In this document: positions 8,396 through 53,574 of the stretch, in pieces | How positions within the stretch are numbered: position 1 is the first letter of the stretch | Layout of the letters: the number at the start of each line of letters is the position of its first letter | Assembly: GCA_050084985.1 (NCBI GenBank) | Contig: JBITNC010000001.1 | Span: forward strand, 157,356,001-157,420,000 | DNA length: 64,000 nucleotides | Direction: 5' to 3' | From: Nageia nagi | Taxonomy: Eukaryota; Plantae; Pinophyta | Translations under genes and position numbers: made by a program | The notes under the pieces: generated by a model | The model's database searches: none | What the model saw: the letters and a program-made list of their open reading frames with translations, nothing else | What the model was told of the DNA's origin: nothing

Positions 8396-9504
8396 TATTG
8401 ATGTGAGTTTCTTTCCCCCCATGGGAAACAATGCCGTAGAGGTGAGATAGCATGACCTACCCCTACTTGAAAGGATTCTAACCCCAAGGTTTACTTTATG
8501 GTTTGGCAAATGTTCAGTAATGGTGGCTTAATGGTTGTGTGTTTCTCTCCTTTGTCACAAGATAACTCTGGTGAGGATGTGCTCGGGTGATTAACTCACA
8601 ATTTGTTACGGACCTATTGGGCTCTTTACAATATAATGTTCTCGTGGTTGTACGTAAAAGCAAAAAATGGTGATTGAATTGACTGGTTGATGGAAGTGAT
8701 AAATGATGGCTTGTAATTGTTGTGTAACGTCTAGTGTTTTATTTCTTGGATTTATTATGATGCTTCACAAACTAGCAGGCAAGGAGGATAATGACTGAGT
8801 TCTAATCCCCTCCAAGCAAGAGCATGGGGAAACAATCAAGGTGGACAACGAGTGAAATGAATTGTTCATTTATCATCCCAATGAAGCATTCTAATCAAAT
8901 GACATAGGAATAAAGGATCCTAGAATACAAGTCATGTGCAAATCGTAGAAACAACTATTCATATGCTTAAGAAAGACATTCAACTGTCTTTTCCTAAAAT
9001 GCAAAACTTTCAAAGAGAATGATCATAAACATACAAATAACCAACTAGACAACATACCAAATATGTTATATAGCGAATCCACTATCCCACGAAATAAAAG
9101 GCATCACTTGCATTAGCATTAATACCAGAGCTTCCTTGAAATGACAAAGCAATGTATACAACTGGAAGCTTCAACTCCAAAAGCCCTTCCTACAAAATGA
9201 TCCAACTCGAGTACTTATAGCATCAAGTTTGACACCCTCATTAAATGAGGTGTTGCAGTGTTTCCCGAAAATAGCAAAAGGAAAACCTAATACTATCAAA
9301 GCAAATACCATCAATTATAAAACTGTCAAACATCATGAAACCGAGACCACAAAATACTGCTATCACACCACATCAAACTTTCTTGTGGTTGTGGAGCAAA
9401 AACTCATCCTTCATAGCACAAGTAAAAGAAAGTTTCATATGAATTTAAGATATAAAGTCTTTTGAAAAACTTCCTCTCCAACTAACAAATATGCATTTTT
9501 CCCA

Positions 9505-14194: not shown

Positions 14195-14241
14195 GTTGAA
14201 CCTGTAGAAATGAGACACCTGCAAAACAAAAGTAGTTAGTG

Positions 14242-15412
14242 TGTAAAATCTCCAATATAATGTCAAGTGCAAATCATCCAAATAATTATGAAATAATAAA
14301 AAACTACACCCTTAAATAAGCCATGTCTGGACTAGGGCAGCAAACACACGCAAAAACAAGCTAGAAATGCTAACGATCCCCTTAACAAGCAAGAATATCA
14401 CTCAAATGCCCAACGTCATGCACAATGAGATAAGATTGCATCAAATGTACACAATTATGAGATAAGAATGAGATCCAAGTATGCGACAACTTCAATTAGC
14501 AAGATAATGATGAGTACAATACTGTACTAGCCCAAGAGGGCTCAATGTTGGCCTCCAATGAGCCAACTAGGGCATATGAATATGTAAATATGATCACTGC
14601 TGGAATAATGGATGGAACAGCTACACTCCCTCAAGATCTGAATCCTCTCCTCTGAAGGAACTCTCTCCAAACCCTAGAAACTAACTGAATGGTAGGACTG
14701 CAACCTCAGAGTACCATCGGTTGGATTAAGATGCTACTCCTTAAGCGTAGATTAGCAAGATCCCTTAGCCTGCTAACCCTCCTTGATGCTGCACCAAAGG
14801 GAAGATTGCTTGGCGCTGTGTCCAAGACTTATGTCCACTGGATGGTAGGAGAAATAATATCAAATTCAATATATCCATGCAATGATGCTCCAACGCCTAA
14901 TATAACTCAAGTGTGGATCTAGATTATCACTTCGGAATAATCCATGCCTCCCCTATCCAATGTTAGCCTCCTAGAGGTCCTCAAATGCCTCAAACATGTC
15001 ATAAATGCCCATGTGTGGGGTTTGGAGCCTTCCTAAGGTGTGACATGGGCCTCCAAGGGTGATGGCATGCCTCCAAGTCCAACATTGGGGTCCTTGAAGT
15101 CCCCTCATGTCATGCGTCGGGTTTCTAGGAGTCATACATGTGTCTAGATCCTATTTTCATGTCCATACAAGTCCTCGGGATTCCCACAATCAATTCTTGG
15201 GATCTACAAGTACATAAAAGAACATTAAATTATGCTAGCCTACGCTTGGGAGGAAGACATCCCACTTGGGGTCCACAGTGGGGTCCAATGGACCATTATT
15301 ATTTCTATCCCAAGTAGTAACAACAAATACATGAATAAATAAATAAATATTTACTTGGGAGGAATCCTTATGATTCCACATTTAATTATCTTTTACAAGA
15401 GAGGATGTGACA
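14242..15412 (-). mobile_element. Probable solo LTR, ~1.17 kb, nested in H1 leader
   Basis: tgtaaaatc...gatgtgaca termini; U5-side like 22399-23365, U3-side like family I; TSD only 3/5 (tagtg/taatt). Confidence 0.7.
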
Positions 15413-16091
15413 TAATTTGTAAGATTTGACTGGCAAATGCAATGTGGTGATGCAGTGAGGCAATGACTGGACAAGTGAGTGGGACTCATTGACTCTGCTA
15501 GGGTGATGCAAGATGATGTGTCCTTTCCTGAATGATGGGTAAGGTGGGGCCAAAGATGCTTGGCGAACCTGTATGCCTTACACCTTCAATTTAACCTATT
15601 TACTTCAGCACACCTTGAGTGGTGTATTAATAGACAATGTTTGAGACACTAATTTAATTGAAAGGGTGTTCGGCCCCCCCTTTGTCCTTTATGTAAAATT
15701 TTGAATCATGTGCCCTTGATCTTAAATAAAATAGAAATTCCAAAGCTTTTCTTGGCACTTGGTGGGGCCCAATTGATGTGTGAAAACTTAAATAGCGTAC
15801 AAGTGCCTTGGTTACACCAAAATTAGATGTCACCTTTATGTCTCGAAGGGGTCATGCGACTATGGATAAATGCAAAATGGAGGGTGGATGATGGATTTAT
15901 AAGACACGACAAAGGCTTATATGAGACATGGCAAGATGGAATAAAGACAAGTGTTATTATCATGCAAAGAACTAGACATTTGTTGGGTCTCTTGATGAAA
16001 AGCAGTTAGGATTGTATCTTTATAGGGATATGCGACCAAGTGTGGTGACAAGGACTCAACTTAAGTTTGGCTTAGAGTCTCCTATTGGTGT

Positions 16092-17253
16092 TGTAATCTC
16101 CCAAAATATTTTAATTTATGTTTTTTTGTGTTTGTGTGCTTCTAAGGGGTGGGTTAGTGTGTTTTGAAAAGTTTTATTATTAGTATAAGTGTTTAGAGAG
16201 TTGGTTATGTATTTAGAATAGTTTTAAGATGAAAAAATGTATTAATTAATGTCATTGACTTGGTACACATTTTTAGCTTGATGATTGGGATGATAAGACA
16301 ATATTAAATGTCTCTAGTATTTGTAACTACCATTTTGGCAAACGTAATTGTTATGAGGTCAAAGTTTAAGGTATTATTTAATGTTTTTGTAACTGCCATA
16401 TGAGAGGATTTGTAACTGTTATAAGGCAAACTTTTGTAACTGTCAAGAGGCTTAAATTAAGATTTCCAAGACTATTTAAGAGGAATAGTTGGTCATTTGG
16501 AGGTGGTGAATTTGGAAGAGCTTTGCTCTTTTGGACTCTTGCATTCTGTTGGAGTTTTTTGGGATTCCCAATGGAGATCAATTCAATGGAGGCTTGAAGG
16601 ATCAGATCCTAGAGCTATCTACCCAATTGGATTTGACCAATCCACATCAGGGTTGGTGATTTGGGCTTGATTTGAGGAGCATCATTGAAGCTGAAGTGTA
16701 GATCTGCCTATTGGAGGGCAAGTTAGAAGTTTCTGAGTAGAGATCAAGCCTTTTGAGGCTATTGGAGTAAGATGTCAGCCTTGAGAGGACTATTTTGTAG
16801 GTTGTAAGGGCCAAAACTGTCAAGGGAGCCATGTTCATGCTTATCTTTGGTGAAGACAATCTAGTGTTGGCACAATTTTGGGCATATCAGCCTTTGTTTA
16901 GTAGGATAGAGGCTTGAGGGTGTTATTTGCTGAGATAATCGACTGAGGACAACTCTGAGAAGTCTGTCGAGTAGTGGTCTAGCTTGGAGACCATAATACA
17001 ACTGTTTTTCCAGTTCTTGTGGGGTTTGTTTTGAGTTTTGAAGGTGTTACAGCTGTTTGAACAGCACTTCGAGGTGTGTTTGGTGATCTGTAGTTGTCTT
17101 GCTTACATACAATTGTAACACAATTGTCTCTGTTACCTATAATTTGCTGTAGTTGCAAGCTTTCTTTATTGAAATGACAAAATATATAAGAAATCAGATT
17201 TTTCCCTGTGGAATTATTATTGTTTTGTGTGCATTTGTATTTGGTGTGTTTCA
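16092..17253 (+). mobile_element. LTR-like insertion in H1 (right end approximate)
   Basis: Starts tgtaatctccc; TATA-like ctatttaagagg ~16471; T-rich U5-like tail; interrupts H-type sequence; no TSD confirmed. Confidence 0.45.
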
Positions 17254-17299
17254 TTGGGCGCAAGATCCCTTGGTGTTTGCAAAAATGTCCCTCAAAAAC

Positions 17300-18500
17300 C
17301 ATGTGACCAATCTTGGAGAAAAATGATCAATATGAAATGGGGCTAAGTGCAAGTGCATTTATAGCTTTGAGGAGGACATATGTAATGACAATACATGTTT
17401 AGATGGTGGCTAGAGGACATGTGTCATTCCTTTCCGTGCATGGGTCTTTCTAGCCTGGTCGCACCATTTCCTAGAGATGAAATAGTGACTTTGGTGAACT
17501 ATGCGACCAACCTTAAGGGGAGTGACTGCTTGCAATAGTGAATGCTAAGGCCCACCCTTTTATAACTTGATAGATTGATTAGTGGCATTGCTTGCCTGGA
17601 TGGAAGGGAGGCCTTAAGCAAGTGTTATATTTTCCTTATGCAAATGCAAAACAATGGTGGTCGCTCATCTTCTTATCTTTACAAATGTATCTTTCTTGAA
17701 AGAATCAACCAAGGATGGGGAGAGTCTGTGTCCCACACTTAGGTGAAAATAGGCCTCGAATGGTGGTCGCACCCCTTGAAAATGATGCAATAGTAACCTC
17801 CTTGGAGTAAGTGACCAGCCTAAATGCATTTAAAAGTTTATACTTAGTCAATTTTTTCTCAAGATGGGCCTTGAATGGGGGTGTTCGCACCTTTTTGAAA
17901 TAGTTACATAAGTATCTTTTGGGAGAGGTGTGACCAGCCTTAGAAGTGTTGTGCTTGGCTAATTTGCCAATTAAAATACCAAGAGGGGGCAAGCCACCTT
18001 TCTCAAATTTTAGAATTGTATCTTTCATGTGATATGCGACCTGTCCTTAGAATGAGGAAAGATCCATACTTAACTAAATTTTAGCTCAAATTGACCAAAT
18101 AGGTGGTCGTAGCTACAAAAAGTGTGACCAAAGTATCTTTCTAGATGCATGCGACCATGAAAAGGGAGGATTATTGCTCTTGCACTTAATCAAATTTATC
18201 TCCAAAACTGTCCAATTTGCTAGCTACACCTTTTGGGGAAGTTAGGAAGGTATTGTTTTGTCAGCATCCGACCACTTGTGAAAGCCATAGACTTAATCAT
18301 TTGAAGAAATGAGGCCTATTTATAACCATTTCGTTGCTAGTTGTCTTCCATGCAAGTGTCCCAATTATGCCATGTGGAGCCCAAACATAGAGTGGAGCAA
18401 CGGCCTTAATACCCGGTCTTGACACTAACTTCTCCCTTTGGTTGCACCATATAGAAATGTTAAGAATGTAACTTATTGGGAGCATGCAACCAACTTGAAG
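17300..18500. repeat. Degenerate ~115-120-bp tandem array with TGGTCGCA-N38-TGCGACCA inverted motif pairs (H1)
   Basis: Pairs at 17456/17502, 17764/17810, 18104/18150, each with a 38-nt spacer. Confidence 0.8.
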
Positions 18501-22398: not shown

Positions 22399-25300
22399 TG
22401 TGACGTCCCACTCCTTGGGATATGAGTTAGTTATAGATTGTATTTAGGTGTGAGCTTGATAATTAAGAGTAAATTTAGTATGTTTTATGTGCGCCACTTG
22501 TATGAGTTGTAATACACGATTCCAAGACAATTAATGATTGTAAATGCAATATTAGTCTGCAATAATGAGGTGTTTCATATCTAGCCATTGGATCTTGTAA
22601 TTATTGACATCCCTAGGTAGCGTTGGCATGTGTATGATAGCTAGGACACATCTAACTCCACGTTTCGGCATTTGAGGGCGTTTAGGAGGCTAGCTTTGGA
22701 CTTGGAGGTTGGAGTGATGATTTCTAGGTGATATCTTGATCCAGGGATTGTTATATAAAGGAAATTCACATCATTGTATGGATATACCTGATTTTGTTAT
22801 TTCTCCTACCGTCCATTGGATACAAGACTTGGGACAACGTCAAGCAATCTCCTTAGGTGCAACAACTAGGAGGGTTAGTAGGCTGATGGATCTTGCTAAT
22901 CTATGACTAAGGTGTAGTATCTTAGTCCATCTGGTGGTATTCTGATGTCACACTTCTACCTTCAATGGTTTCTAGCCGTGGGAGTTCTGCAATAGAGCCT
23001 CTAGGCTTGAGGGAGTGAGGCTATCGCATGCATTGTTGTGGTATCAACAGTGATCACATATGTATGTTTGTTGTTCCCTAGTTGTCTCCTTGGCGGCCAA
23101 CGTTGAGCCTTGTGGGCCTGGTATTGTATCATTTGCCATTCTTCATCATTAATACAGCTGTGGGCATATTGGATCTTAGCATTTGTCTTGTATTTGATGT
23201 GTATGCTTCCTTATTCGCAACGTTGAGGTGTATTTATGCTTGTATGTGCAAGATGTTGGCATTGAGGGTTTGTTTATGCTTGAATTTGAGGCTCTACGCC
23301 AGACGTGGGTACATATTTGCTTGTTTTTTATTATTTGTACTTGAGATTGTGATTGGGATCTTACAATGGTGTCAAAGCTTAGATCTGGTTAGCCAGTGTG
23401 GTTAAGATCTAGCTTGAAACAAATTGAATTGGTGGATCAGGATGTTTTGCACTTAAAAAGGTAGATTCTGGGTAAAAATGACATTTTTTTGGAAAATTTT
23501 GAGTTTCTAGACTAAGTAGTCTAGGGTTTAGGGAATGCATTTTTAGATTTGAAGGCCATTTCCAGGTAGAAAAAGTTTTGATGTATTATCTTGGGTAGTT
23601 AGAAAAATTTAATATGAAGATTTAAGCTTTCGTGCTAGGGTTTTTTAAAGTTCGGCCAGATCTACAATCAAGGTAAAGAAATCAGATTTTGGAAAGAAGA
23701 TGTTTCAGAGAATGCTCCATCAATTTGAGGAAAGAAAAATTCCTCAAGAAGAAAGGGAGATGCTCTTATGATACTTGGGTGAAAGGCATGAAAAATGGAT
23801 GCGGAAGAAGAGAGAAGAGACGTGGGAATCTAGATCTCTTCTAGAACATAGAACACCACCAAGAATTGAAGTGTTGCTCCAATTCTACCAAGGGACCTCC
23901 AAAGAGTTCCAGAGAGACATCAATTTTCAGCTATACCAAGATCTTTTGGGGTATGGAATCGTTTAGTGGGAGAAAGCAAAATATGACGTTGAGGGGGAGG
24001 AGGTTAAAACCCCCCAACGGCTAGACTCAAACCTCCCTTGTGCTTTAAGGAGGAGATTGCACCTTTTGATGTAAAGAAGAAGGTGGAGTTCAGGATTCAA
24101 AACATAGAGCATCAAGTGCATAAAGAGGAGACCTGGATCAGCCACAAAAGGTATGAAAGTAATTCTGATTTTTATGACAGTAATTCATAAATTTTGCATG
24201 GTGTTGTTGAAAGTAATAATCTCGCTTTGCTTCTTGCTCATTTAAAGTTGTACTTGAGGCATTCTTGTTGTGAACCTCCTTAACTTGATAGCTACATAAA
24301 GATTCCCGTCAAATACGGATCCTGGATCTTCTAAACGTTGCAATATTGGCAGATTGTCGTCATTTGCACTGAATCTCTGAGTTTCTTCCATTCTCACCCT
24401 TTTTTTTTATTATTTTTTCTTTCTTTTTAACAAACCCTTGTAATTTTCGTTGACGCAAGCCCTGAATAGGTCTGTATAAACTTGTGAGTTAAAATTCCCA
24501 TGACCTGCTCTATTGAGCTGATCAACCTACTATTTTATATTGTCCAGAGGCACGATAGAGCTCTACTAATTCCACGAAGCCAAGTAGCTTCGTAGGGTAG
24601 TCAGTTCCTTAGTGCGGAGATAGGTAATGCTATTTCACCCTATATGTTGGTAAGGTCTCTTTCTCTTGCTAAGCTTGCCTCCGTTGTGGTCTTGCAAGGT
24701 AGGAAATAAATCAACACCAACATAATACACGATTCCAAGGTAATTAATAATTGTAAATGCAATATTAGTCTCCAATAATGAGGCGTTGCATATCTAACCA
24801 TTGGGTCTTGTAATTATTGACATCCCTAGGTAGTGTTGGCATGTGTATGATACCTAGGACACATCTAACTGCACATTTAAGCATTTGAGGGTCTCTTGGA
24901 GGCTAACGTTGGACTTAGAGGTTGGAGTGATGATTTCTAGGTGAGATCTTGATCTAGGGATTGTTATATAAAGGAAATTCACATCATTGCATGGGTATAT
25001 CTGATTATTATTATTTCTCCTACTTTCTAGTGGACACAAGACTTGACACAGCGTCAAGGAATCTCTTCCTAGGTGTAGCATCTAGGAGGGTTAGTAGGCT
25101 GAGGGATCTTGCTAATCTATAACTAAGGTGTAGCATCTTAGTCCATCCGGTGGAATTCCGAGGTCACAATTCAACCTTCAATGTTTTTTAGGCGTGGGAG
25201 TTCTACAATAGAGCATCCATGCTTGAGGTAGTGAGGTTGTTGCATCCATTGTTCCGTTGTACCACCAATGATCACATTTTTATGTTCATTGTGCCCTACT

Positions 25301-27823: not shown

Positions 27824-28404
27824 TTGTGTTTGGAGTTTTTGGCCAAGAGAATCAATGGCAATCAAGTGCATGGTGGTTCTAGGGAGGATAGGATGGATCT
27901 AAAACAACGATTGAGTAGGATGGAAGTGCCCTTGTTCAATGGAACTGGAAAGATGACCGCTAGGGCATGGTTGCAAAAACTACAAACTTATTTCACGCTC
28001 AACCCCATGATAGAGGACGATGTCGTACGGTTTGCTACCTTACATTTGATGACATAGCATATGAGTGGTGGTAGCATGGCATGACCATGCAGAGTCATGG
28101 AGCCATCACCTCTGATGTCTTTGGCTGAATGATGATGGATCAATTTGATAGAAAGGGTTTGTGGAGTATGTGGTAGAGTTTCAACAAATTGTAGTGATGG
28201 TTCCCATTATCTTAGAAAAGAGGGTTACCTTACTCTTCATGAAGGGATTGGCCAAGCTGTTGAGGGGTTTAGTCAAGGCCTTCTCTCCTATGTAGCTACA
28301 TGACACCATCAAGAGGGCGTTAGAACTAGAGCCTAGCATGACAAGGGACAAGGTTGCAGCACCACCTATGATAGGGATATCTAGAAGGGGGATGTTGGAG
28401 ATGG
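27824..28404 (+). pseudogene. Ty3/gypsy gag remnant of element B (continues at 36474-~36640)
   Basis: MEVPLFNGTGKMTARAWLQKLQTYF...FATLHL..AYEWW, typical Retrotrans_gag signature; stops and frameshifts present. Confidence 0.85.
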
Positions 28405-29611
28405 TGTTGACTTGTATTTCTTTTCCCTCCCCGCGGGAAAGGACACCATGGATGAGTGGAGTAGCGTTACTTACCCTCGCTTGAAAGGACTTTAATCCCA
28501 AGGTTCCTTCAAATTATTATGGACTATAGGTTTTTTTTTTATAGCAAATTTTATGCAATGGTTGTTGATAGTCGACATGATAACTTCAGGGGGAGGTATG
28601 TGGTCGAGGATGGTTACTCACAATTTTGTGGACCTATTGGGCTTTATCTCTATCAATGTTCACGTGGAAACACACAAAGCAGAGGGAATATAAAGTGAGA
28701 TACGAAAGTTTTGCCAGTTGAAAGGAGGATAAGTGACATGATCTCACCATTGTGTAGGGTTTGAAGCTTTCATCTCTCGGATTTATTAGGTTATCAAGCA
28801 AGGGAGGAAGCAATTGAGTCTGGATCACTCCCAAGCGAGAGCACAAGGCAGTAGTTAGGGTGGAAAAAGAGGTGAAGTGAAACATTCAGTTATCTATTTC
28901 CCAGTAGAAGATTCCAACCAAATGTTATAAGAGTAAAGTGATTCAAAATACCACAACTTTACCCAAACCATAGAAACGGTCGTTCATGCATCTAAGAAAA
29001 ATATTCAACTATCTTTTCCTAAAGTGCTAGACATCAAAGAAAATGCTTGTAAATGCATAAACAACACAATAACATCATTATGTCATTTACATATCCATGA
29101 TTCCACGAAATGAGAGACTATACTTGCATTTAAAACAAAGTTTTGCAAAATTATAGATCATACATACATTTATAAATCTCAACTCCAAAGTGCTTCCTGA
29201 AAGATTTGCATACAATTCAAAAGACTCCTAAAGAACATGTAACTTTTCATACATCGAAGGATTCTTGATCTATCTGTATATATCCCTTTCTTTCTATTTT
29301 CCTCCCTTTTCAAAAATGACCCAGCTAGGGTATTGATAGCATATGTTTGACAACGTCATTAAATGAAGCTTCATCCTGATATTGATTGCAATGTTGCCCT
29401 AAACAAGACAGCCCTAATACTATTTTGAACTATGTAAACCATCAACAAAACAAAATTGTGGCTACACAATACCGCTCGAATGTCACATCAGTGTCACATC
29501 ACATCACATCAAATCAAGTCTTCTTGCAGCTGTGGGAGCAAAAACTCATCCATCACAATGAACTTAAAATAACAATTGTCTTAAACTGAAAAATAAAATA
29601 GCATTTATCAA

Positions 29612-32600
29612 TCAACCCTCTGTAGGACCGACAGTTAAACTGCGAGCAACATCAAAGACATTGGGAATCCTATAAGACCTTTCATCAAAGAAGGCCTAGC
29701 GTTGGCGAGCCCTACAACAAGTACTCCAAGCAAGTTGTTATCCTTCCTTTTGTGAAAATGCAAGATGTATTGAGAAGTGTATTCCATCTGGAATTTCCAA
29801 ACGGCGAAATGTTGTTGATTTTCAATGTGTCCCTACCCTTAACAAGTTTACGTCCTTGGTGAAGATAAGCTCTCGAATGGTATTCTGGACATCCTGAATC
29901 ACGAGCTCAACTCTCTTGGCACCACCATCTTCATTCAAAAACCTGATTAGTTTCACAAACTGGCTCATCTGGAAGGTTAAGGTAAAAGACAAATCGGTCC
30001 TGGCCTTGGTCAAATTGTCACATTCTACCATTGCAAACCTTAGCCAACGCAGGTGGTAGGTAAATTCTTGGCAGAATTGTATCTTGCTTGTTTGTCTTGT
30101 AGACATTATTTTCAGATTCTGGATGGTCTTCTCATGGTTTTGAAAATCCTGCAGTAAATGGGAAATGGCTGTAGTTGTTTTTTCTTCTCCATTCTACTCG
30201 TTTGCGAGGGCAATCAATCGATGTGAAAGGTCATTGACCACTCTCATTATGCCATTGACCAAGGTTTCTTTGGTGGTTGTGATACCAATATTCAAGGAGG
30301 CCTGTAGCTTAATGTCTTCAAAGGACATTTTAGCAATTTTTGTTTCCTTCACCAATTTATTCTTACCAACCAACTCCTTTAGCTTCTTTATTGTATTCTC
30401 CCTCTCGATACCTTGGTTGACCATCTCATCCACATTATAGTTAATGGCGTGTTTAAGCCCGACCCACCCAATCTTTTTAGTTTTGAATTCTTTTGTGTGG
30501 ACGCTCACGTCTTGAAGGTCTTGTGGATGTTTCTTCTTTGAGTAGCACCTATTGATGGTCACCGTATCCTTTTTCATGAACACGAAAGTGTCGAGTTCTT
30601 CAATGGGGGATTCCTCGAAGGCACTTTCTCTCCTCTGGCTATATTCTTCGTCAACGCTGCAATACCTCATCTTTAGATCCTTGATGATTGCATCAATATC
30701 AAAATCATATTTCTTTTGCGGACCATAACTTGATGCAATATTGGCCAATGTGGTATCTGTATTAGTGGGAGTGGATTCCCTGGGAATCTCCTCGATTATC
30801 AGCTGTTGGTTTTTGACCTCATTTGGCTTATCTTTGATTCTCAATGGTTTGTGGTTGCCATGTTCTAGCTGCTTCCTTTTCTTTCTTTGTTCTTCATCCT
30901 TGCCTTTATCTTCTTCATCTCCTTCGCTAGTTCCTGCATTCGATGTTTTGTTCAGCTTTGAGGGTTTGATGGGGGTCGTACTGGATGCTTCTTTCTTAGG
31001 TGATGACCTCCTATTCCTCCTTGGAGTGGTGGATTCCGAAGAAGTGACTTGTTTCTCGGATACTGATCTAGTTGATAAAGTTTCACTAGCTATCTTAACT
31101 TTGGACTCTCCATCAACGTCCACAATCTGGGTGTCGCTCGTGTGAAGCTACGAGTCTTTGTTATCCTCATGTCCCCTTACAATTTCTTCTTCTTCTCCTG
31201 AACTAGACTCAGATGAGCTAGAAGATTCAAAGGATGTCTCATAATTTGGAGAAGAATTGGAATGAATAGGCGAATCAGGCTCTCTAGACTAATTTATTGC
31301 TGGATTGCTTTGCTCTTCTATTTGGGTGTCCACGTCAATAGGCTCAGGGAACTTAATCTTTGCATGATCTTCTGTGTGTGTCATGAGATTGGGGATAGCC
31401 AAGGGATTTTCGACCCTGATTGGCATGATAGGCGTTATAGGAATATCCTTTGGGGTGGCATCCTCGAGCTGTTGCAATGGGAAATCAAGGCACCCAGTTT
31501 CGACCATGATATGGACATCTTTGGTAATTTCTTTCTCAACAAAATGAATTTCAGGTCCAGAACTGCCTAAGGTAGCATGCTTGCCCACCCGTTCTTGGCG
31601 TCTCCTCACTCTTGTTGAGAAGGTAGATTTCTCACCTGGGGCCGCTTGAGGTTTGCTTAAATTCTGGATTCTTTGGTCAATTCGACCTTCTGCTGCCAAT
31701 ACTTGGTGTACCTCCTGAATTTGCTTATCTTCTCTTTTATTCCTATATCTCTCCTTGTCTCCTAGAGAGCTGTGCTCATAAATTACTGGGTTTTTGAAAG
31801 CTCTCTTGTAGTAGACTTGGATTTGCCCTTCAGGATCATAATGAGAAGATTGTTGCTCCTCACAAAAGTGATAGTAAGACAACTCCGTCATCATTTCTTT
31901 GGCATCCTGCCAAGTTGAACAAGTATATTCCCTCATGGAAATTGGGAGGTTCCTTGTGGCATTCTTCTTTTTCCATATATTTTCATGTAGAAACAACAAT
32001 TGCCTTGTGGTGATCCAAAATGAAATTCTACCACAAACTAGCAATTTCGGAGCATCAAACCTTAACGTTAGGTCTAGGGCATGAAAACTCAAACATAGAA
32101 ACCCTCAAATGCCAACGTTAGGGTCAGAACATTCAATACGAACTACAATAATGGAATTATGCCAATGTCTAAGCTAGGGCATCCATATTACACATACTTA
32201 ACACCAAGATGCCAACTTCTAACTATAGCATGCAATATTCAATCAACAATACATCATAATGCCAACGGATGATAAGTACAAGCATAAACAAACACAATGA
32301 TCCCATGCATGCACAAGATGAGTCAACGCAACACAACCATGAGATACAATTGCCCTTGACGATATATAAATGATATGAAGTAGTGCAATACAATACCAAG
32401 CCCTATGGTGCAGTCGTTGGCCTCTTTGGAGCCAACTAGGGCACAATAATGTATATCCTCGATCACTGGAAAAACAACGAAACAATGGGAGAATAATGCT
32501 CCCTCCAAACCTGAATCCTCTCCACTGAAGGAGCCCTCCTCTAATCCTGGATAACCAATTGAATGGTAGAAGCCATACCTCAGAATGCCATCAGATGGAT

Positions 32601-34413
32601 AAGGCATTGAGCCAATACCATAGACAGATAGGATCCCTTAGCCTGAATGCCTTCTAGAAGCTTCTCCTAGGAATGTTGCTTAGCACCGCTAAGTCTTGAA
32701 GTCCGTGGACGATATAAGAGATTAATAATCAAGCATGTCTAGTAATGAGGCTCCATTGTCTATTTATACATTAGATCTACCACCGTCTCACCTAGATGTC
32801 ATCACCTAGCTCAGCTTATCCAACCTTGACCTCCTGGGGGCCTAGAATACCCAAGGTGGATGTCTAAACGTTAGACATGCCAACGTGGGGTCTAGGGGTG
32901 CATTAAGTGCCAACGAGTGAGCTAAGGGGTGCCATGCATATCCATGTGGGTGAAGGGGGGAATACGTGGGGCCTAGGTGTCATGCTGGGCCAACGTGGGG
33001 TATGGGAATCTCCGCAAGCCTGGCTCAAGCATATAAGTGGCCATCCATCACCTCAATGTACAATAGACCTTGGGATTCTCACAATCAATATCGGGATCTC
33101 CAAGTACACAATAAATGCCTAATTTATCCTTAGGAGGGAGACGTCCCACTTGGGGCTCACAGTGGGGTCCATTGACCCATTAAGTCTCCTATCCTAAGTT
33201 ACAATTGTAAAGTGTAAATACGTGAATAAAGTATATTACAAAGAGGAACCTTTCGAACCCCACAATTAATTACAATTATCCAAAAGGGATATCACATGCC
33301 TTCAGAATTCCATGAGGATCAATCGATTGTTGGCATAGCGGGGCAGGAGATATAGCCTGACTTTAAACCGTAGATGCGAATATATGTATGTGAGGGGTCT
33401 TTTAACAGATAATCCGCATGCGCTCGGATGGCCTCTACAACATAATCTAATATCCATTTCACCATCTGCCTTCCCTTTATCTCCTTGTATATCTAGTATT
33501 GCCATCCGTTGTTCCTCATGGCATAGTGATCCCACCTAGATTCTAGCCACCATTTGGGATAGGCCTTCCATGTAGGCTTCGTTGGGTCGTTCAAAATGTC
33601 TGTATCTTCATATGCTGACTTTCTATTTTTTCCATGGAGAAGGAGAGAGACAAGATACAAATTCATATGGAACTTCTTTGAAGAGCCGATATGAGCCACT
33701 TGTTGAAGGAGGTAGTCTCTGATTACTTTGCTCCATCTGATCCTTTGCGTATTCCTTATTACAACAATGAAAGTGATAAATTCCTTCTTGAACTTGAGGT
33801 AGTCCTCCTTACCAGTTACCCAAGACAACATACTGATGATCATTGAGACTGTGGGATAGAAATGTTGTCTCTTTGCATTAATTAATTTGTTCCTGGTGAA
33901 TTCTTTAATTTTGTTCTCGAGCCAATCTCGGATGAGATCTTTGGTTCGTTGAGATTTCTTGTAATAATCCAGGGAATCCTTTTTTGTGTAGATGACCCCT
34001 TTGCCACTCCAGTTGAAAGCGTCCTCAATGCCCTCCATGGAGAAATTGAGGATCTTATTACCATTTGTGTCATAAAGCGCACGGGTTTTGTAGTTGGCAT
34101 GTCTACCAACTTCATAACAAAGCTTGGGGAAAGGTGTGGCAAACGGGGTAAGGGTGGCCGTGGCCAATCCGTAGGTGCAAATGACCTCGTTGAGCATTTG
34201 ATTCATCTCTAAACTGCTAATGGATTGCAAGGTTCGTTTGGGATCGGTATGTAACTAGTAAGTATCTTGAATATTGGAGAGATTATTTTTGAACTTGGCC
34301 TCCTTTAGGGGATCTTTGGGATTCTCTTTGGCAAACTCAATCCGAGAGGGTTCAGTAAACCTTACTAGTTGAAGTTCCTGAGTCTTTCTTAATTTGGAGT
34401 TTATTTTTGACAT
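29612..34413 (-). pseudogene. H2 ORF, ~1,170 codons after removing nested LTR 32006-33296; unknown protein starting MSKINSKLRKTQELQL
   Basis: ATG 34413-34411, TGA 29614-29612; ORF-track pieces 33493-34230, 31289-32005, 30194-31123 and 29822-30106; homologous to the H1 ORF. Confidence 0.82.
32006..33296 (-). mobile_element. Solo LTR (family I), 1,291 bp, nested in H2 ORF
   Basis: tgtggtgat...gatatcaca; perfect TSD TGCCT (32001-32005, 33297-33301). Confidence 0.92.
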
Positions 34414-34899
34414 AATGACCTTGCTAAACAAATTGAGTTAGTATGGAGTAGACTGACTGATAGACGTAATGGGGATGGTACGGGTAGGACGAGTATGGTG
34501 TATAATGCCTAGCAATCCTGTATGCACTTTGAGATGAGGAAGATGATGCATAAATGTAGGTGAGACTTGAGACTTAATGCTTATGACAAAAGTGGTCAAT
34601 CTCCTTACGTGCAACATCCAAAATATGAGCCTTAAACAATTAATGCATATGCACATCCTTTAGCTAATGGGAACCATATGAATGCACGAAGGGCTTGGTT
34701 GCACGTTTCAAGGATGTTATCTTTCCAACTTAGATGGATGTGTGATCAGTATGGAGATTGACTTGATGGGACATGGCCAAAATGAAGGCATGACGTATAA
34801 ACACAAATAATAGACGACTAAGTAAATAAAACCAAACTTCAACGTGTATCTAAGTGTGGGACCTCTTCCTCAAAATGAGACTTCTTTGATGCATTCGTG

Positions 34900-36200
34900 G
34901 AGAATTTCAAACAAAGATGCAAATGTGACTCATGGATCATGCGACCATGCAATTTTGACTAAAACTTGCAATTCTAATGGGTGCATTGTTTTCAAAAGAT
35001 GGATCCTTATCCTCTTGGCACCTTGCGACCATGCACACCTAGGATGGCTGTTGTAAAATAAAACCAATGCAAATTTTAATGACCAAAAAAGGGTGGCCAA
35101 TAAATATGGACCATTTGACTTTAATGCAAAAAAAGGGGTGGTCACATATTCTAAAAGAGATGCAATTGTGACTTAGCAAAATCATGCAACCAGCCTTGGA
35201 GGGGTAAATGACATGCAAAATTTGACCAAGCCTCCTACTCTTATAGCCATCTTGATTGCCGAGTGGCAATACTTCGGTGGCTGAAGGAAGGATTTTGAAC
35301 AAGTGTGCAATTTCATGCAAAATGCTATGGTCGCATCTCTCCAGAAAGATGCAAATGTATCTTCTTCAAATAATGCAATTAGGGATAGGCGTGCCAAAGT
35401 GCCAAAATGAAGCCAAAAGGGTGGTCACATGTTTCCCAAAAGATGCAAATGTAAAGTTTTCAAACCATGTGACTAGCTGAAAAACCCTCAAAATGGACAA
35501 CTTCAGCTCAAGAGTGCTCAAAAAAGGGTGTTCGCGCCTTTCTCAAAAAATAGAAGAGCTACTTTTCCTGACCATGCGAACAACGTTTAGGGGTGTTAGG
35601 CTAACACTTAGCCAAAGTTCGAAGATCAAAACATAGGAAATGGGGTGGTCGCACCCTAAAAAGAAGATGAAATTGTAACTTTTGCCAACCATGCGACCAC
35701 CTTGGAGCAACACATTAGACCAACTAAAGTAAAATGAAATTTCCCTGCTCTCCTTTTATACTAACTTGTCATGCCATGTGTTTATTGCTAAATGGCTAGA
35801 TTGGAGGTCGAATGAGATCATGAATGCACATTAAATGCCAAAATGGGTATGGTCGCATCTTGTAAATCATGTGGCCAGCTTAGAGGATGAACTTTGGGCA
35901 CACTTAACCAATTTATAGGCTAAAAAATGCTTTGAGGGGGTAGTCCCACCTTTTCTAGATGTGAAGGTGACTTTTTCGAACTATGCAAACGCCTTCGGAG
36001 GGATTGGCTTGGTAGAATTTTAGCCTTTTGCCTTAGTCTCTTGGGATTTTTATAGACCGACGCCAAGTGTCATCAAAGGGGCGGCCATTCTAGAGAAGAA
36101 AATGAGAATTATGATCACAGCCTTAAAAATAGATGAGAATGTATCCTCCCTTAGCCATGCGATCACCACTTTTGATTTGAAAACTTGGAGATTTTGCACA
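34900..36200. repeat. Degenerate tandem array with TGGTCGCA-N38-TGCGACCA pairs (H2)
   Basis: Exact pair at 35646-35653/35692-35699; degenerate pairs near 35139, 35422, 35528. Confidence 0.8.
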
Positions 36201-38135
36201 TTCTTCAAAACATGATTGGACCTTCATTGGATGGCTTTATTTCCTTCGTTTTTTACTTGCATGGATACTTAGAAAGTATTCCTTCATCTGTTGTAAGTAT
36301 TCCGGGTGAATTTTAAAGTTGCACTTCGGGTTCATCTGACTAGGTTGTTGTCGCGACACTTTGAAAAGTGGTTCAACAAAGCTTAATTCTTGTTGAGCTC
36401 CATTATCATCCTTTGACTGAGGGTCCACAAATTTTCAAAAATTAAGGGTGGGAGTTGCTTTGTCAGCAGATGGGGCCCCACCTGCCGTAACTAGCCAGAT
36501 GTCAGGTGGCAACAAGGGCAGCTTGTAATCCAGGAATGAGCTAAGGAACAAGAATTTGTTCTTAGTTGCAAGCAACCTTGGGAGCATGGTCATAGATATT
36601 TGGGCAAGGCACAAGTCCATTACATCAAAGTAATCTCAAAGAATGCTAATGCAAAGTTGCAGTTGGAGTTGGGACGGTTGAGTTAGGAACCAAAACTCCC
36701 TACTTGGGATAGCAAGAGCGCAATTGGAGGGATGATTGTGTCATTTTGTGTAGTACCCAAGTAGTTCACGTTGAAGGTGAAAGGGTTAGATGTCGGCCAA
36801 GAAGTGATGGCTTTGATAGACCGAGGAGTGACACACAACTTCATCGATGAGGAGTTTGTGAAGACCTGTGACGTACCCCTTGTACTTTTGATAGGGCTTG
36901 TTGGGTCATGTTGTACTATATGTATTTCATGTATTTGCATTTACCTTGTTGTAACTCAGGATAGGAGTTTTAATGGGACATGTGGACCCCATTGTGAGCC
37001 CCAAGTGGGACATCTCCCTCCTGTGTAGTAGAATAGGTTTGTGTGATGTGTGGAGATCCCGGATTGTGGGAATCCCAAGGTATATTAATGCATTTATGGA
37101 TTGGATGGACACTAGCATGCTTGCATAACATTGGGGAGGGCCCCACACCCCCATGTTGGTATGGTTGACCTTCGGGAAAAGAGTCTTAATGGTGCTAAGC
37201 AACTCTTCCTAGGTGGGTTGTCTAGAGTGTAGGCAGGCGTTGGGATCCTGACTATCTACGGATTTGGTGGGTCACCAAGCCCAACCAATGGCATTCCGAT
37301 GAAACACTTCCTTTAGTGGTTATCCAAGGTTCGAGGAGGGTCCTTCAGTGGAGAGGATTCGGAGTCCGAGGGAGTGCATCTATCCTGTGGTTCGGTAGCA
37401 TTTTAGTGAGGGTTTCATATTGTTGTGCCCTAGTTGGCTCCTTGGAGGCCAACGTCCAGCTCTAGGAGCTAGGGTTTGTATTGTATTTCATCTCATATCA
37501 TAATACAGGCCGTTGGGCATAGGATCTCAGTATTGTATTGTTCATATTTGTTTTTGGCATTGTTTTTGTTGGTTTTCCATATTGTGGCCATCGTTGATGT
37601 TGTAGGCTTGTGTAATTATCATTGTGAGCATTCGTTGGGTGTGTAGTGTGTTTGGAAGCCTTGGAGGGTTGACGTTAACATTGTTTGTGTATTTGGTGCC
37701 TTAGAGGCCCAACGTTGGTGTTGCGGATGCATTGTTGAGGGTGTTGGAAGCCCTAGTTTATTGGTTTTGTTTATTGTTACTAAAGTTTGGTTTTAGGTTC
37801 ATTTTGGATCCTTACAAGTTGTATCAGAGCGTGGATTTGCCAGCCTATGAGGTTAAGATCCAACTAGAAGCAAGTTGAACGAGTAGATCGAGAGGTCTTG
37901 CACTTAGAAAGCTAGTTTTGGGGTGAAAACGATAGCTTTTCGGAAAAGTCTGAATTCCTAGACTAAGTTGTCTAGGGTTTGGAGAATATATTTCCTGATT
38001 TGAAGACCAATTCTAGGTATAAAAATTCTTGATCTATTACCCTGACTAGTTAGAAGATTTCAAATCTCGTGTTAGGGTTGTTTTGAAGCTTCAGTCGGAT
38101 TTGCATTCCGCATAAAAAAATCATAATTGGCACCA

Positions 38136-41100
38136 ATGGAAAGAGAAATTTCAGCCAGATCTAAAGTAAGGGTGAAGAAATCTGTGTACGACGCGGTAGT
38201 TTACTTCCATTTACTCCATGAACTTGAATACTACAAGATCTCTCTGGATGAAAGGGAGAGGTTTTTGTGGGTTTTGGGTGAACGGCATGAGGACAAGATG
38301 TGCAAGAAGAGAGGACAGACATGGAAGCCCAGATTTGTTCCACCACATAAGACTCCACCAAGGATCGAAGTTTTGCTCTAGATTTACCAGGGAACCATTG
38401 TAATGTTCCAAATGAAAACTAATGCTAAACTTCAAATTGAATCCGGCTAAGGTTTCTCAAACCCTCACCTAGTCCCCATGTCAAGCCCCTAAGACTTGCG
38501 AGCTCTTGCCAACACCCACGTTGGCCTTCTAGGGCCACCAAGCACTCCCTAGGTCACATGTTGGGCTTCTAGGGCATCCAATGCACCCTCACACCTGACG
38601 TCAACCCTCTCAAGTTGGCATTTGGTCCCAGCAACTCAAAAATGCATGCAACAGTAGTCTACAATGCTAGCTCATTCACCATCACTGGAAAACCAACAAA
38701 AACAAGCATACACATCCAATGCATGCACATATGAGACAATTAAGCAATATGCAATGAGATCCCAAAGCCTCTGGATATATATTATTATTGGTGAGCAATA
38801 CAAATCATACAATCAGCTAATGGGCAACCGTAGGTTTCCCTAGGCAATTTGGACATACACCAAATCAGTGTAGAACAATGGGACAGATCCACTCCCTTTG
38901 TCTTCATCTCCTCCCCACCATAGGGGCTCTCCATGACCACCGGATATCTAATTGAATGGAAGGAACAAACCCTCGGATTTCATCGGATGGGCAAGGTGCT
39001 CCACCTATGCCATAGACAACTAAGATCTGTCAACCCAACTATCCTCTAAATGCTCCGTCTAGGAAAGTATACTTAGCATCGCCAAGTTCGGGTAGTCACA
39101 CGGACAAGTAGTAATATCAATAATTCAGCTATTGTCCAAATGAGCTCCCCTCGAGTATTTATAAGCTCCAGTCAATAGTTGACCTCAAAGTCATCCATAA
39201 GCCTTATATTCCAACGTTGGGCATTCTGAGGGGCCCAACAACTTAACGCACCATTATGATGTCTTGGAATGCCAACGCAACAACATAAGGCCCAGTAATG
39301 CTAATGTGGGGTCCTAGTCGACCTGAAGTGCCAACTTGGGGTTCCTGGAAGCCCAGTAAACCAACGTTGAGGTGTGGGGCCCTCCATGAGGTGGCACAAG
39401 CATGACGACTATCCTGGAACACTTGGACTCGTTGGGATTCCCACAACTCGGGATCTCCAAACTACAACATACTAACATGACTACTTAAGAGGGAGACGTC
39501 CCGCTAGGGCTCACAATTGGGGTCCACATGACCCAGTATGTCTCTTGTCTTTAGCTACAACATGAACATGACCACCTACAAGGGATATCTCTAAGATATC
39601 TGGTTGACAAATATAATTTGGCACTATAGTACAAAAGGGATATCACAACCACCAAAGAATTCTAGAGAGACATCACTTTCCAGGTTTACCAACATCTCTT
39701 GTGATACGGTGTGGCAGGTGAGAGGAAAACCAATGTTGGAAGGGAAAAACTAGCCATACCCCCAACGTCTGGATCTGGGCCTTCCGGAAGCATCAAGGAC
39801 GTAGTCACTCCCTTAGATCTGAAGACAAGGAGTGGACGGAAGCTTTCACTCAGATCCCAAGTAGTGTGTAACAAGATGGAAGCATCACCTATTGTTTGGA
39901 AGGAGAATGCACACTCTCTACAACATTCCTTTCTTCATTGTGAGACTTGGATCAGCCATGTTGACACCCCAAAAAGGTATGGAAGTGATTTTGGTTTTTA
40001 TGACAGTAATTCAGAGATTTTGCATGATGTTGTTGAAAGTGACGATATTGGGAAGAAAGAGGAAAGAGCTATTCTTGTTTCAGATTTTGTTTTGGGAGAT
40101 AGTGATGAGAAAGGAGAAGAGCATGGACCTAGCAAAGAAGAAACTGAAGGAGAAGATACGTTGGGTCTGAGGGAGCCTAGGGAGCCCACATTGGAGGTTG
40201 AAGAGGTTCGTCACCCTACGTTGGGACTGGAGGAGGGAGCTCTTGCTATGTTGGGCTATGAGGAAGTAGGACACCCAACGTTGAGCCTTGAAGAGAGATT
40301 CATGAGTCTAAACTCTTGGAGAGATTTAACACCATGGATCTGTAAGGATCTAAGCTTGGAGAATGAGTATCTTGCTTTGGGAAGGTATGACTTTTCCTTC
40401 AATTCAGTTTGGTTGATTACTAATCTTGTTCTTGGCATGAACAATAGTTGCATACAGAAAAGAAGGACTGTTGATAGCTACATCACTCGCACATTCATTG
40501 GAGGTTTCCCTCTTACAGTTTCAGTCCACAAGAAGACACTTGCTGCCATGAGGATGGAATGTTGTGTTCCAAATGATCACATGAGGTGTTGGAGGGTTGC
40601 TGTCCATTCATCATGGGCTGCATTTGATGATGTTATGGTTGTTGCAAGAGGAGGAGCAAACATTGATGTTTTCATTCATGGGACTGACACACATGATGTA
40701 TTTGAAGCTGCTGTTCACATAAGAAAGGCTGCGTTTGTTGACACTCTTGGGGTTGCCCTTGGAAATGTATTGGTTGCCAAAGTAAAAGGGACTTTTGTTG
40801 CATCCTCTTATGACAATTTGAGGGCTGCCAATTGCTTATTATGGGCTGCATATATTAGTATATTGGCTGATGTTGATAAGGGGACAATTATGGCAGTTTT
40901 GGAGGGTGATTTGAGGGATTCCATTCAGGCCTTAGGAGCTGCACTTGATGACATGTTGACTGTGTTTGATTGGACTGCGTGTGAGGCCACATCTGCCACT
41001 TTTTTGTAGGCTGTGTTTGATGTCATGACAGCAACCATAATGATTGCTGCATTTTGCAAGAATGAAAAGGTGGTTGTTGTCACAAGACGGACTGCAATTC

Positions 41101-41666
41101 CCAGGAAGATTGAGACTGTTGGGCAATACATAGGGACTGTTGTTATTATTTCAGAGGCTGAATTAGGAGCTGTTGTTAACACATCATTGGAGACTTCATG
41201 GACTGCATATCCTACAGATTTTGGGGCTGTATTCATGCCATTTGTTGAGGGCAGAATGATGACAGATTTGGTGTTGGAGAAAAGGGTTGTTTTCATGGCG
41301 CATGGGACTGTCTTTGAATGCTTTGATAATGATACGAAGGCTGTCTTTCATGAATTGAAGACTGAGATTGATGATGCTTTAGTTACTGCTAGTGGGTGTA
41401 TTGTTATTGTATGCCTTGATGTTGGTTTGAGGATTGTTAACTCTGATTTGATGGCATCCTTCATACTGCTTGAAGACCCTACGTTGGAAATCTTTTTGCT
41501 AACTATTGACACATGTTTGTACATTGATTGGGAAGACTTGAGTGAGCCTCTACACCTCATGTTGAGCTTGGAGGCAGCTTGTTACCTCAAGTTGGGCATC
41601 AAAGGAATTTGCGACCAGACGTTAAGTTGTCGGGAGGATTACTATCCCACGTTGAGCATTCAGTAG
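38136..41666 (+). pseudogene. Element C long ORF of unknown function (~760 codons after removing nested LTR; three in-frame stops)
   Basis: 38127-38381, 39711-41009 and 41013-41666 share one frame; nested LTR plus TSD = 1,254 bp, a multiple of 3. Confidence 0.7.
38399..39647 (-). mobile_element. Solo LTR, 1,249 bp, nested in element C ORF
   Basis: tgtaatg...gatatcaca; TSD accat/accac; uninterrupted homologous site seen in D (~23885-23920). Confidence 0.9.
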
Positions 41667-50867: not shown

Positions 50868-53574
50868 TGTTGCATTTGAAATGCAACAATTTTAAGTTTA
50901 TTTCATTTCACATAATTTTATTTTTATTTGGACCACAAAACTGTATTCATTTTGATTAAGCCTTGTGATGGATGAGGATTTTCTCCCACAAGTGCTGGAT
51001 TTAATCTTGTAGTGCCATGTGACATGTTTTCATTTGACCGCTAGTAATTAGGTTTTATAAGTAATTTCATCTGAATTTGCATTAAGGTTAGGGCAGCAAT
51101 TAGGGTTGGCACCAAAAACTATTTATAGCCCTTGAAGGCTCATTTGCGGAGGAGGATGGTCACTTGCTCAAGAGGAGCTATTATGAAATTTGCTAAAACA
51201 TTAATACTCTCTTATGTGAATGTAATGCATGACTTAAACAAATCAAGGCTTGTCTCCATTTAATGGGATTGTGAGTTTGAGCACTTGTGCTTTGTGTTTG
51301 CTTGTAGTTGTTACATGACTTGTGTACATTTCTCGCAAGTGTAGGGTTATTAGAAAGATGGTTGAATATCTTATGAAGTGGTGTAATTGCTATATGATGA
51401 CCATGACTTACTTTTTTTGCATGAAGATAAATGAATGTTGGTGAAATTCTTTCTATGTCATTTAGTTTGATGTGCCACTCATGTTGTTGTTCTTTCGCAA
51501 TATTGCTATAGGTTCTTACTTGTTTGCAATTTGGACTTAGTCATTTGTAGCAAGGTGGGATAAGTGAGTATTGCACTTCATAATAAATCCGTTAGGAAGT
51601 TGATCCAATCACTAGTTCATTGTGGGCTTTTCATTGAATGTACCCCTCTCGTGTGCCATCATCCCCATTTTACATTTTTCTTTGCTTTTCCTTTTTTGTT
51701 TTTACTTTCTTTGCCATCAAAAGTCTATACTCTCAATAGGTGTAAGATAACTCCAGTGCCCACAACAAACGTGATGAACAGTCGTTACCTCTACCTTCCC
51801 ACTGAGTATTCCAAGTATAGCTACTATCATTTTCATGAAAGACTTCCTATGATGTTAGAAACCTTGGGGTAACCAGTCCTTTCAAGCGGGGGTTAGTAAC
51901 ACAACCTCACTCACATGTTGGATGTCGTTTCCCAGTTATCACCTAGGTGATCTTCGTAAGTGGAAAGAAAAACACCCCAACATCTAGTCCCGTTTTTAGG
52001 GCATGTATTCATCAAGACATGATTCATGACCTCCCCGAACCATCTGCCAACATTCAAGAGACTCATATAAGCGACAAAGGTGGAAAATGACTCAGTATAA
52101 ATCATGAAAACTATTCTTCTCCATCAGCATATGTTTGCTAAATGACAAGAATTTTGTTTGCCTCATGAGCTGTGCCTGAACTCAAATCATCATGAAGACA
52201 AGCATATGGGGTCAAAAAGACACATTTAACATGAAGAACTCAAAGACAAGTCATTTTAGCCTAGGTGTATGTTTCAAGAAGGACAACATTCATGACTCAT
52301 CAAAATGATATGCCCCAAAGTCGTGACCCTTGATAAGCACATGTGTTGAACATGAAAAGAAAGTGTCTTATACCCCTCCTTGGCGCACATATTCACCAAG
52401 ACAAAAGGGGTGAATCTCCAAACACATGCGCTAGGATCCTAGACAGACATTTCAGCTAAGACACGATCATTGACCTCTTGGAAACCTATGCTAGCCATGC
52501 TTTTCCATATTGGGCACACATCCTTGACATGCAAATGGTGAAGATCCCAGGTCATGTGATGCAGAGGTCAAAGAGGCAAATGAACCCATGATGGAAGGTG
52601 TTGCATGTTGGATTCAATATTTTTAATTTTATTTTATGCATAATCTAGCTATTTTGGACTCCAAATTTTATATATTTCTATTAAAGCATTGTGATGGATG
52701 AGGATTTGCTCCCACAAGTGTTGGATTTAATCTTGTTGCACCATGTGGCATGTTTTTATTGGACCAATGATAATATGGGTTAGTTTAGGTGAATTTGCAT
52801 TAGGGTTAGGGTTTCCTTGCAAAAACTATAAATAGCCCTAAAGGGCTCATTTTTGGGCAGGATGATCATTTTGGTCAAGAGGAGCTATGTTAAGAACTTG
52901 TTAAAATTTTGAACGCTTTGTTAAAATTTTGAATGCTATCTTGTGTGAATGAAGAGCATACTTAATCTAATCAAAAGTTGTTTCCACTCAATAGGATTGT
53001 GAGTTTGGACATTTATGCTTGGTGTTTACTCGTAGCTATTACATGACTTGTGTGCATTTCTCACAAGTGTAGGCTTGTTAGAAAGATGTTTGAATATCTT
53101 ATGAAGTGGTGCAATTGCTATTTGATGAACATTGCTCACTCTTTTGCATGAAGATGAATGAATGTTGGTGAAATTTTTGCTATGTGGTTTGGTTTGATGT
53201 GCTACTCATGTTGTTGTTCCTTCGTAACATTGCTACAGGCTCCCACTTGTTTGCAATTTGGACTTAGTCGTTTGTAGCAAGGTGGGATAAGTGAATGTTG
53301 CACTTCATAATAAACTCGGTAGGAAGGTGATCCAACCCTTGGTTCATCAGTGGGCTTGTGCCATCATCCCCATTTTACACTTTTCTTTTCTTTTCTTTTC
53401 TTTTTTTTACTTTACCATCATAGTTTCACAAAAATCTCTCATGATATTATAAACTTTGGGGTAACCAGTCCTTTCAAGCGGGGGTTAGTAACGCAACCTC
53501 ACTCACATGTTGGATGTCCTTTCCCAGTTATTACCTTGGTGGTCTTCATAAGTGGAAAGAAAAACACCCCAACA
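50868..53574 (+). mobile_element. Element M: small non-coding two-LTR element (LTRs 50868-51982 and 52599-53574; 616-bp internal region with degenerate short repeats)
   Basis: Both LTRs start tgttgcat and end gaaagaaaaacaccccaaca; TSD ggggg/agggg; purine run gatggaagg before 3' LTR. Confidence 0.88.

Follow-up and report, generated by a model that had tools for sequence, protein, structure and literature searches.

Proteins encoded in the U3 region of a long terminal repeat (LTR) are known from retroviruses. Sag of mouse mammary tumor virus (MMTV) and the overlapping part of nef of human immunodeficiency virus (HIV) are open reading frames (ORFs) of approximately 200-320 amino acids (aa) that end up in both LTRs. 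During reverse transcription, the U3 at the 3' end of the RNA is the source of U3 in each LTR. Here we describe a unit, named H2, in a 64,000-nt stretch of Nageia nagi (contig JBITNC010000001.1, assembly GCA_050084985.1), hereafter the window. H2 is probably a solo LTR left by a Ty3/gypsy element with LTRs of approximately 6.8 kb, whose U3 held a gene of approximately 1,170 codons that is broken in this copy.

In plant LTR retrotransposons, the relevant passages of a review place extra ORFs in the internal region (PMC7264820). According to the survey text that covers them, elements of the OTA clade of Ty3/gypsy (Athila, TatII, TatIII, Ogre, and Retand) have LTRs of up to ~5 kb, tandem arrays, and extra ORFs; LTRs were limited to 6,000 bp in that survey (PMC6317226). 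The supplement lists tRNA-Asn primers for Athila, TatII, and Retand, with tRNA-Asp also among the Athila and TatII primers, and additional file 5 gives sense extra ORFs of TatII on the 5' side in 23% and on the 3' side in 26% of 27 elements (PMC6317226). Ustyantsev et al. describe Tat lineages I and II as being without an extra ORF (PMC4408406), whereas the later survey reports extra ORFs in TatII (PMC6317226). In passages on other families, Cassandra, Helenus, and Ajax carry a gene-derived module within the LTR (PMC10886601), and Retrosat2, a rice Tekay/Del family, has LTRs longer than 3.2 kb, many solo LTRs, and an extra ORF0, in a source which adds that LTRs code for no replication enzymes (PMC3485330). 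VANC, a protein encoded by a transposable element, combines a conserved domain with a variable region, and tandem repeats lie nearby in the non-coding DNA of the element (PMC5735166). No protein ORF inside a plant LTR was found described in the literature covered, an incomplete set made up mostly of titles and the beginnings of abstracts.

H2 was compared with a second ORF-bearing copy (H1) and a short relative (M) in the same window, and with ten loci (L001-L010) encoding relatives of the ORF, which a metagenome scan yielded from 411 candidate stretches. L010 carries element Z, inserted upstream of another ORF copy. H2 has the following parts, where TSD stands for target-site duplication:

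28405-36468, minus strand: H2, whole unit, likely a solo giant LTR; 6,768 nt without the nested insertion
28400-28404, no strand: left TSD GATGG, flanking H2
36469-36473, no strand: right TSD GATGG, flanking H2
36418-36468, minus strand: 5' terminus of H2, homologous to LTR 5' ends in L004 and L010
34414-36468, minus strand: U3 leader of ~2 kb, with quasi-palindromic repeats of 55-62 nt at 35131-35702
33302-34413, minus strand: 5' part of the accessory ORF, with the conserved N-terminal domain; two stops and a frameshift near 33370
32006-33296, no strand: nested solo LTR of a high-copy host family (TGTGG...TCACA) with its own TSD TGCCT, a later insertion
29612-32005, minus strand: 3' part of the accessory ORF, with an acidic, Ser-rich linker, an RKKRK basic cluster, and the C-terminal region; six in-frame stops
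29330-29340, minus strand: TATA-like box downstream of the ORF, a putative promoter of genomic RNA
28405-29611, minus strand: 3' tail, putatively distal U3, R, and U5; homologous to the M LTRs, the Z LTR, and the tails of L006, L008, and L010

The integrase-type ends reported in an earlier note on this DNA, TGTTGAC at 28405-28411 and GTCAGCA at 36462-36468, were confirmed, with inversion at six of seven positions, as was the perfect 5-bp duplication around them. By a simple calculation, an exact match of two such 5-mers is expected by chance approximately once in 1,000. A Pfam search and self-comparison bore out that H2 is without a primer binding site (PBS), gag, pol, or internal direct repeats; its first 2 kb and last 1.3 kb have no similarity, as expected from the reported absence of terminal direct repeats. 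Host gag does lie on both sides, the right flank (36560-36860) being 70% identical to the host gag copy at 8087-8386. One contig of sequencing run X3 jumps from 28243 to 36562, as expected of an empty host site, and contigs of three runs span H2 lengthwise, those of X1 and X2 joining across the nested LTR. The contigs also reveal the TGTTGAC end of another copy at a different site. At the right end of H2, one X2 contig reaches GTCAAC and then stops; the contigs at this position contain nothing beyond the terminus, so a polypurine tract (PPT) is unreadable at that point. The nested solo LTR is flanked by TGCCT at 32001-32005 and 33297-33301, and the ORF measures 3,506 nt without it. The three runs, which were found with 5-6% of words, include no RNA and have no bearing on expression. 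Contig depth was similar for tail and ORF and far higher for host LTR than for host gag; it was left unused because depth is not copy number.

The position of the ORF relative to an LTR can be read in Z. The Z LTR spans 3,956 nt, including a later insertion of ~1.4 kb, starts with TGTTGTGAC, and ends with CCCCAACA. Directly after it come the PBS TAAATTGGCGCTAGAAGGAGGG and degenerate coding sequence with a DTGS protease-like motif and no pol; after this internal region, the first 1.3 kb of the LTR is repeated at 90.7% identity. The Z LTR is collinear with ORF-bearing relatives, in its terminus and leader with L004 and in the ORF end, tail, and 3' terminus with L008. Between leader and tail it retains approximately 18 C-terminal codons of the ORF (IADGFEERVDDLDPPDA and a stop, vs. 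IDKSFEERVDELDPPND and a stop in L002), and the score of this remnant against L008 was reached by none of 500 shuffles. On the simplest reading, the Z LTR would be an ORF-bearing LTR after internal deletion. Because this PBS-flanked LTR keeps the last ORF codons between leader and tail, the ORF appears to lie inside the LTR and not in the internal region. L002 921-2012 resembles a second ORF-less LTR but was not counted: its positions 1903-2012 repeat the contig end in inverted form at 100% identity, a misassembly, so that the stretch continues the tail of L002 itself.

The termini of H2 recur in these relatives. For both the Z and the L004 termini, the H2 5' end was the top tile of 8,522. A profile of three locus 5' termini matched first at 36465-36418 (E 0.0048; next match 0.28), and a 3'-terminus profile from locus copies matched 28505-28405 (E 2.1e-7). 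The raw score of the H2 5' terminus is modest, being reached somewhere in the window by four of 60 shuffled queries; its weight lies in the exact position. The earlier note had named full-length relatives with short LTRs and an internal ORF, or a 36468 terminus peculiar to H2, as findings that would speak against a giant LTR. In the reachable data, no such relative was seen, and the 36468 terminus is shared, matching the 5' end of the PBS-flanked L010 LTR as well as the terminus that precedes the ORF in L004. The solo-LTR reading of that note, with a parent carrying a gene in giant LTRs, is supported but unproven. In its favour are the integrase-type termini of H2, a single 5-bp duplication, the absence of internal repeats, and homology at both ends to a PBS-flanked LTR with an ORF remnant.

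The same ends could also belong to a unit that moves as a single, non-repeated module by borrowing the integrase of a retrotransposon, for instance if a one-LTR form integrates, and that has no two-LTR parent of such size. Both H2 termini are integrase-like, and the ORF-bearing units H1, H2, L006, and L008 end in flanking DNA with no pair found, as this explanation would have it. However, the same ends flank a PBS and internal region in Z, the normal layout of a 5' LTR. In the window, pieces of LTR retrotransposons are nested in one another, and solo LTRs of other families are common among them (32006-33296 and others), making recombination an ordinary source. We consider a single module very unlikely.

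The two other units of the window used in the comparison are:

8396-18500 (approximately), minus strand: H1, second ORF-bearing copy with its own nested insertions, ~60-68% identical to H2
50868-53574, plus strand: element M, complete short relative; LTRs of 1.1 and 1.0 kb homologous to the tail only, PBS-like and PPT-like sites, TSD GGGGG/AGGGG

M is non-autonomous and miniature but complete: its LTRs are 76-88% alike and enclose ~610 nt, in which coding sequence is not recognisable. Its layout is the one required by a competing explanation, in which the LTR 5' boundary of the ORF-bearing elements would also lie at the end of the ORF. In L008, Z, and H2, the ORF stop and the position matching the start of the M LTR are at most about 10-40 nt apart, and this boundary, together with several gaps in the loci, weighs against a giant LTR. 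A PBS follows none of the three ORF-linked 3' ends, a purine tract is absent before the second LTR copy in L010, and 26% of TatII elements have sense extra ORFs on the 3' side (PMC6317226). A complete ORF-bearing LTR beside a PBS or PPT was seen in none of the ten loci, only one of which reaches the 5' terminus and none of which is long or intact enough to show a direct-repeat pair around PBS-gag-pol-PPT. Z and L004, moreover, form a sister subfamily to H2, and the gene of the H2 copy is itself dead, as described below. Against this explanation, the H2 5' end is unlike the tail, so a 1.1-kb LTR does not begin there; a sharp junction with this TG terminus recurs ahead of the leader at four separate places (H2, L004, and twice in L010); the perfect TSD spans the whole of H2; and in Z no internal region lies between the TG terminus and the PBS. 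Short LTRs with the ORF outside them therefore seem unlikely to us. The layout of M suggests how LTR length switches in this clade.

As stated in the earlier note, the ORF occupies 34413 to 29612 on the minus strand with an extent of ~1,170 codons; it is not open in H2, contrary to what the note implied. Of its in-frame stops, two fall within the first 307 codons and six in the 3' part, and there is one net frameshift near 33370, leaving open pieces of at most 253, 271, and 317 codons. The gene in the solo copy is dead. Its relatives number 53 among representatives at 50% identity, and an open relative of 758 aa is 42% identical to it. In all nine pairwise codon comparisons, synonymous sites are near saturation (pS 0.73-0.91) and pN is 0.18-0.44, the C-terminal region included; because of this difference, the ORF is regarded as a selected protein gene of the element family. 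Scans for relatives found none among 8 and 269 candidate stretches of virus contigs or among 196 candidate stretches of prokaryote genomes.

The ORF product is likely a soluble nuclear regulator and not an envelope protein. The maximum 19-residue hydropathy is 0.98-1.31 in all four sequences (two of them partial), too low for the transmembrane segment of an Env-like protein. No significant match was found in Pfam, among PDB sequences, with Foldseek on PDB and viral libraries, or in Atlas. None of 38 family members matched the DUF1985 or DUF287 profiles at E up to 1, and plant mobile domain PF10536, Transposase_28 PF04195, and ATHILA ORF-1 PF03078 gave no match in a sequence-to-profile comparison, which a remote relation may escape. 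The best fold match is VANC21 (PDB 9LNK), a VANDAL protein, and the ORF product is weakly predicted to fold like a transposon anti-silencing factor. The function we prefer, tentatively and as possible rather than probable, is that of a VANC-like factor that would bind DNA at the U3 repeats and, acting in trans, release the family from silencing. The fold match and the repeat array of H2 could also be taken to indicate a non-autonomous DNA transposon of VANDAL/Mutator-like type with a VANC-like gene. Mutator-like TSDs are ~9 bp long, whereas H2 has TG...CA ends with a 5-bp TSD; LTR ends that precede a PBS, as in L010 and M, are homologous to the 3' end of H2, and neither the unit itself nor the Pfam search yielded a transposase. 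This origin is extremely unlikely.

Comparison of leader and tail bears on where transcription may begin. The repeat-rich leader of ~2 kb described upstream of the ORF was seen, and its 55-62 nt quasi-palindromic repeat is common to H1, H2, L004, L005, and Z. The homology of the H2 tail to the M LTRs also held, with the four H2/M anchors at 29545, 28478, 50964, and 51875 and the TATA-like motif at 29330 where they had been placed. A box matching this motif is present in the tails of M, Z, H3 (see below), L006, L008, and L010; TATA-like boxes also occur upstream of the ORF in five loci. Genomic RNA probably starts in the tail, because Z has lost the upstream box and M has no leader at all, but the downstream box and a PBS are retained in both; with such a start, leader and ORF would belong to U3. 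A branch-point and pyrimidine-AG acceptor-like tract stands just before the ORF ATG in six of nine copies (~14200-14260, 34414-34450; L001, L003, L006, and L010), and the ORF mRNA may be spliced, although these motifs are suggestive only.

From 5' to 3', the giant LTR would thus consist of the terminus, the repeat array, a TATA promoter of the gene itself, the ORF, a second TATA box starting genomic RNA, R, and U5. With U3 present in both LTRs, every insertion would carry the gene twice. Recombination between two such LTRs of ~6.8 kb would have left H2 with the original TSD, and the gene would persist in solo LTRs as a self-contained cassette. A probable origin of the giant LTR is a shift of plus-strand priming by ~5.7 kb upstream, which would have drawn a 3' internal extra ORF and its repeat array into U3, the direction of this change being an assumption. 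A wider proposal, which we regard as rather unlikely, is that one clade of retrotransposons in plants (probably gymnosperms) took a VANC-like gene for sequence-specific anti-silencing into the U3 of LTRs 6-7 kb long, beside the repeat array bound by its product. Each LTR, including the solo LTRs that remain after the chief removal process of the host, would be a factor-plus-binding-site cassette keeping the family active in trans; gene-less and short-LTR derivatives would ride on it, and standard LTR finders would have missed it through length caps.

The parent was likely a Ty3/gypsy retrotransposon of the Athila/Tat clade, a provisional placement, as no pol was found in H2, M, or Z. In the OTA clade, the PBS is of tRNA-Asn, -Asp, -Arg, or -Lys type and not of tRNA-Met type, and TatII elements have an additional RNase H between protease and reverse transcriptase. 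The Z PBS starts with TGGCGC and differs from the Met-type TGGTATCAGAGC that the host family has at 37820. The Z PBS may be of tRNA-Asn and the M PBS of tRNA-Asp type. The internal region of Z (L010 1886-4368, minus strand) is degenerate, partly repeated protease-like coding sequence without reverse transcriptase; no homologues of its protease-like ORF were found.

Several other features were observed in the window. H1 (8396) and H2 (36469) both lie in the gag zinc-knuckle region of one host family; their host coordinates differ by ~80 nt and their orientations are opposite (n = 2). The far, 5' end of H1 was searched for in the window and none was found; candidates at 18266 and 19634 were rejected because the expected TSD is absent. 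H3 (58994 to about 62000, minus strand) has the family tail behind a 183-bp tandem-repeat leader like that of the ORF-bearing L001, and no ORF; it is probably another gene-less LTR derivative, and a search of the window found no 5' end for it. An additional 3' terminus of the H2 LTR family lies at 24593-24722 on the plus strand (profile E 4.6e-5). Long Ala/Val-rich open frames at 39705-41666 (plus strand) and 6663-7649 (minus strand) belong to a high-copy non-autonomous host family, have no Pfam match, and have similar DNA in L004 and L010. Exons of topoisomerase III (type IA) stand in order on the plus strand at ~3.3-3.9 kb and 48.1-48.5 kb, with an LTR nest of more than 40 kb between them; those near 3.3 kb match human TOP3A residues 379-426, and that near 48.4 kb matches residues 532-564.

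Solo-LTR formation is regarded as the way in which plant genomes delete the coding capacity of retrotransposons; a large gene in U3, with its promoter, would survive this recombination. As a 6.8-kb LTR exceeds the 6,000-bp limit of the survey (PMC6317226), annotation of giant genomes may overlook or mislabel such families. The nearly equal 5' and 3' shares of TatII sense extra ORFs (23% vs. 26%) could reflect a single ORF that was counted once in each LTR. For the function of plant retrotransposon extra ORFs, the pairing of a conserved U3 repeat with a protein whose predicted fold is VANC21-like offers a direct test.

As a probable solo LTR, H2 resembles the retroviral U3 genes in having a protein gene in U3 that would be doubled into both LTRs. 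It differs in scale, since retroviral LTRs are ~1.3 kb or less and the H2 ORF is ~1,170 aa, and also in being of plant origin, unrelated in sequence, and apparently equipped with its own promoter. In the passages on Cassandra, Helenus, and Ajax, the modules are derived from 5S rRNA or tRNA and lie in miniature elements, whereas H2 holds a large protein ORF. The passages on Retrosat2 describe no LTR ORF, and its LTR is half the size of H2. As far as the survey text describes it, the OTA clade is similar to H2 in its 5-bp TSD, TG...CA ends, large LTRs, tandem-repeat arrays, and extra ORFs; its extra ORFs are internal, in contrast to the ORF of H2, which lies between LTR termini, and the LTR of H2 is longer than the survey admitted. 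With VANC21, H2 shares conserved and variable protein regions and adjacent tandem repeats, and VANC21 is the best match to the predicted fold of the H2 protein.

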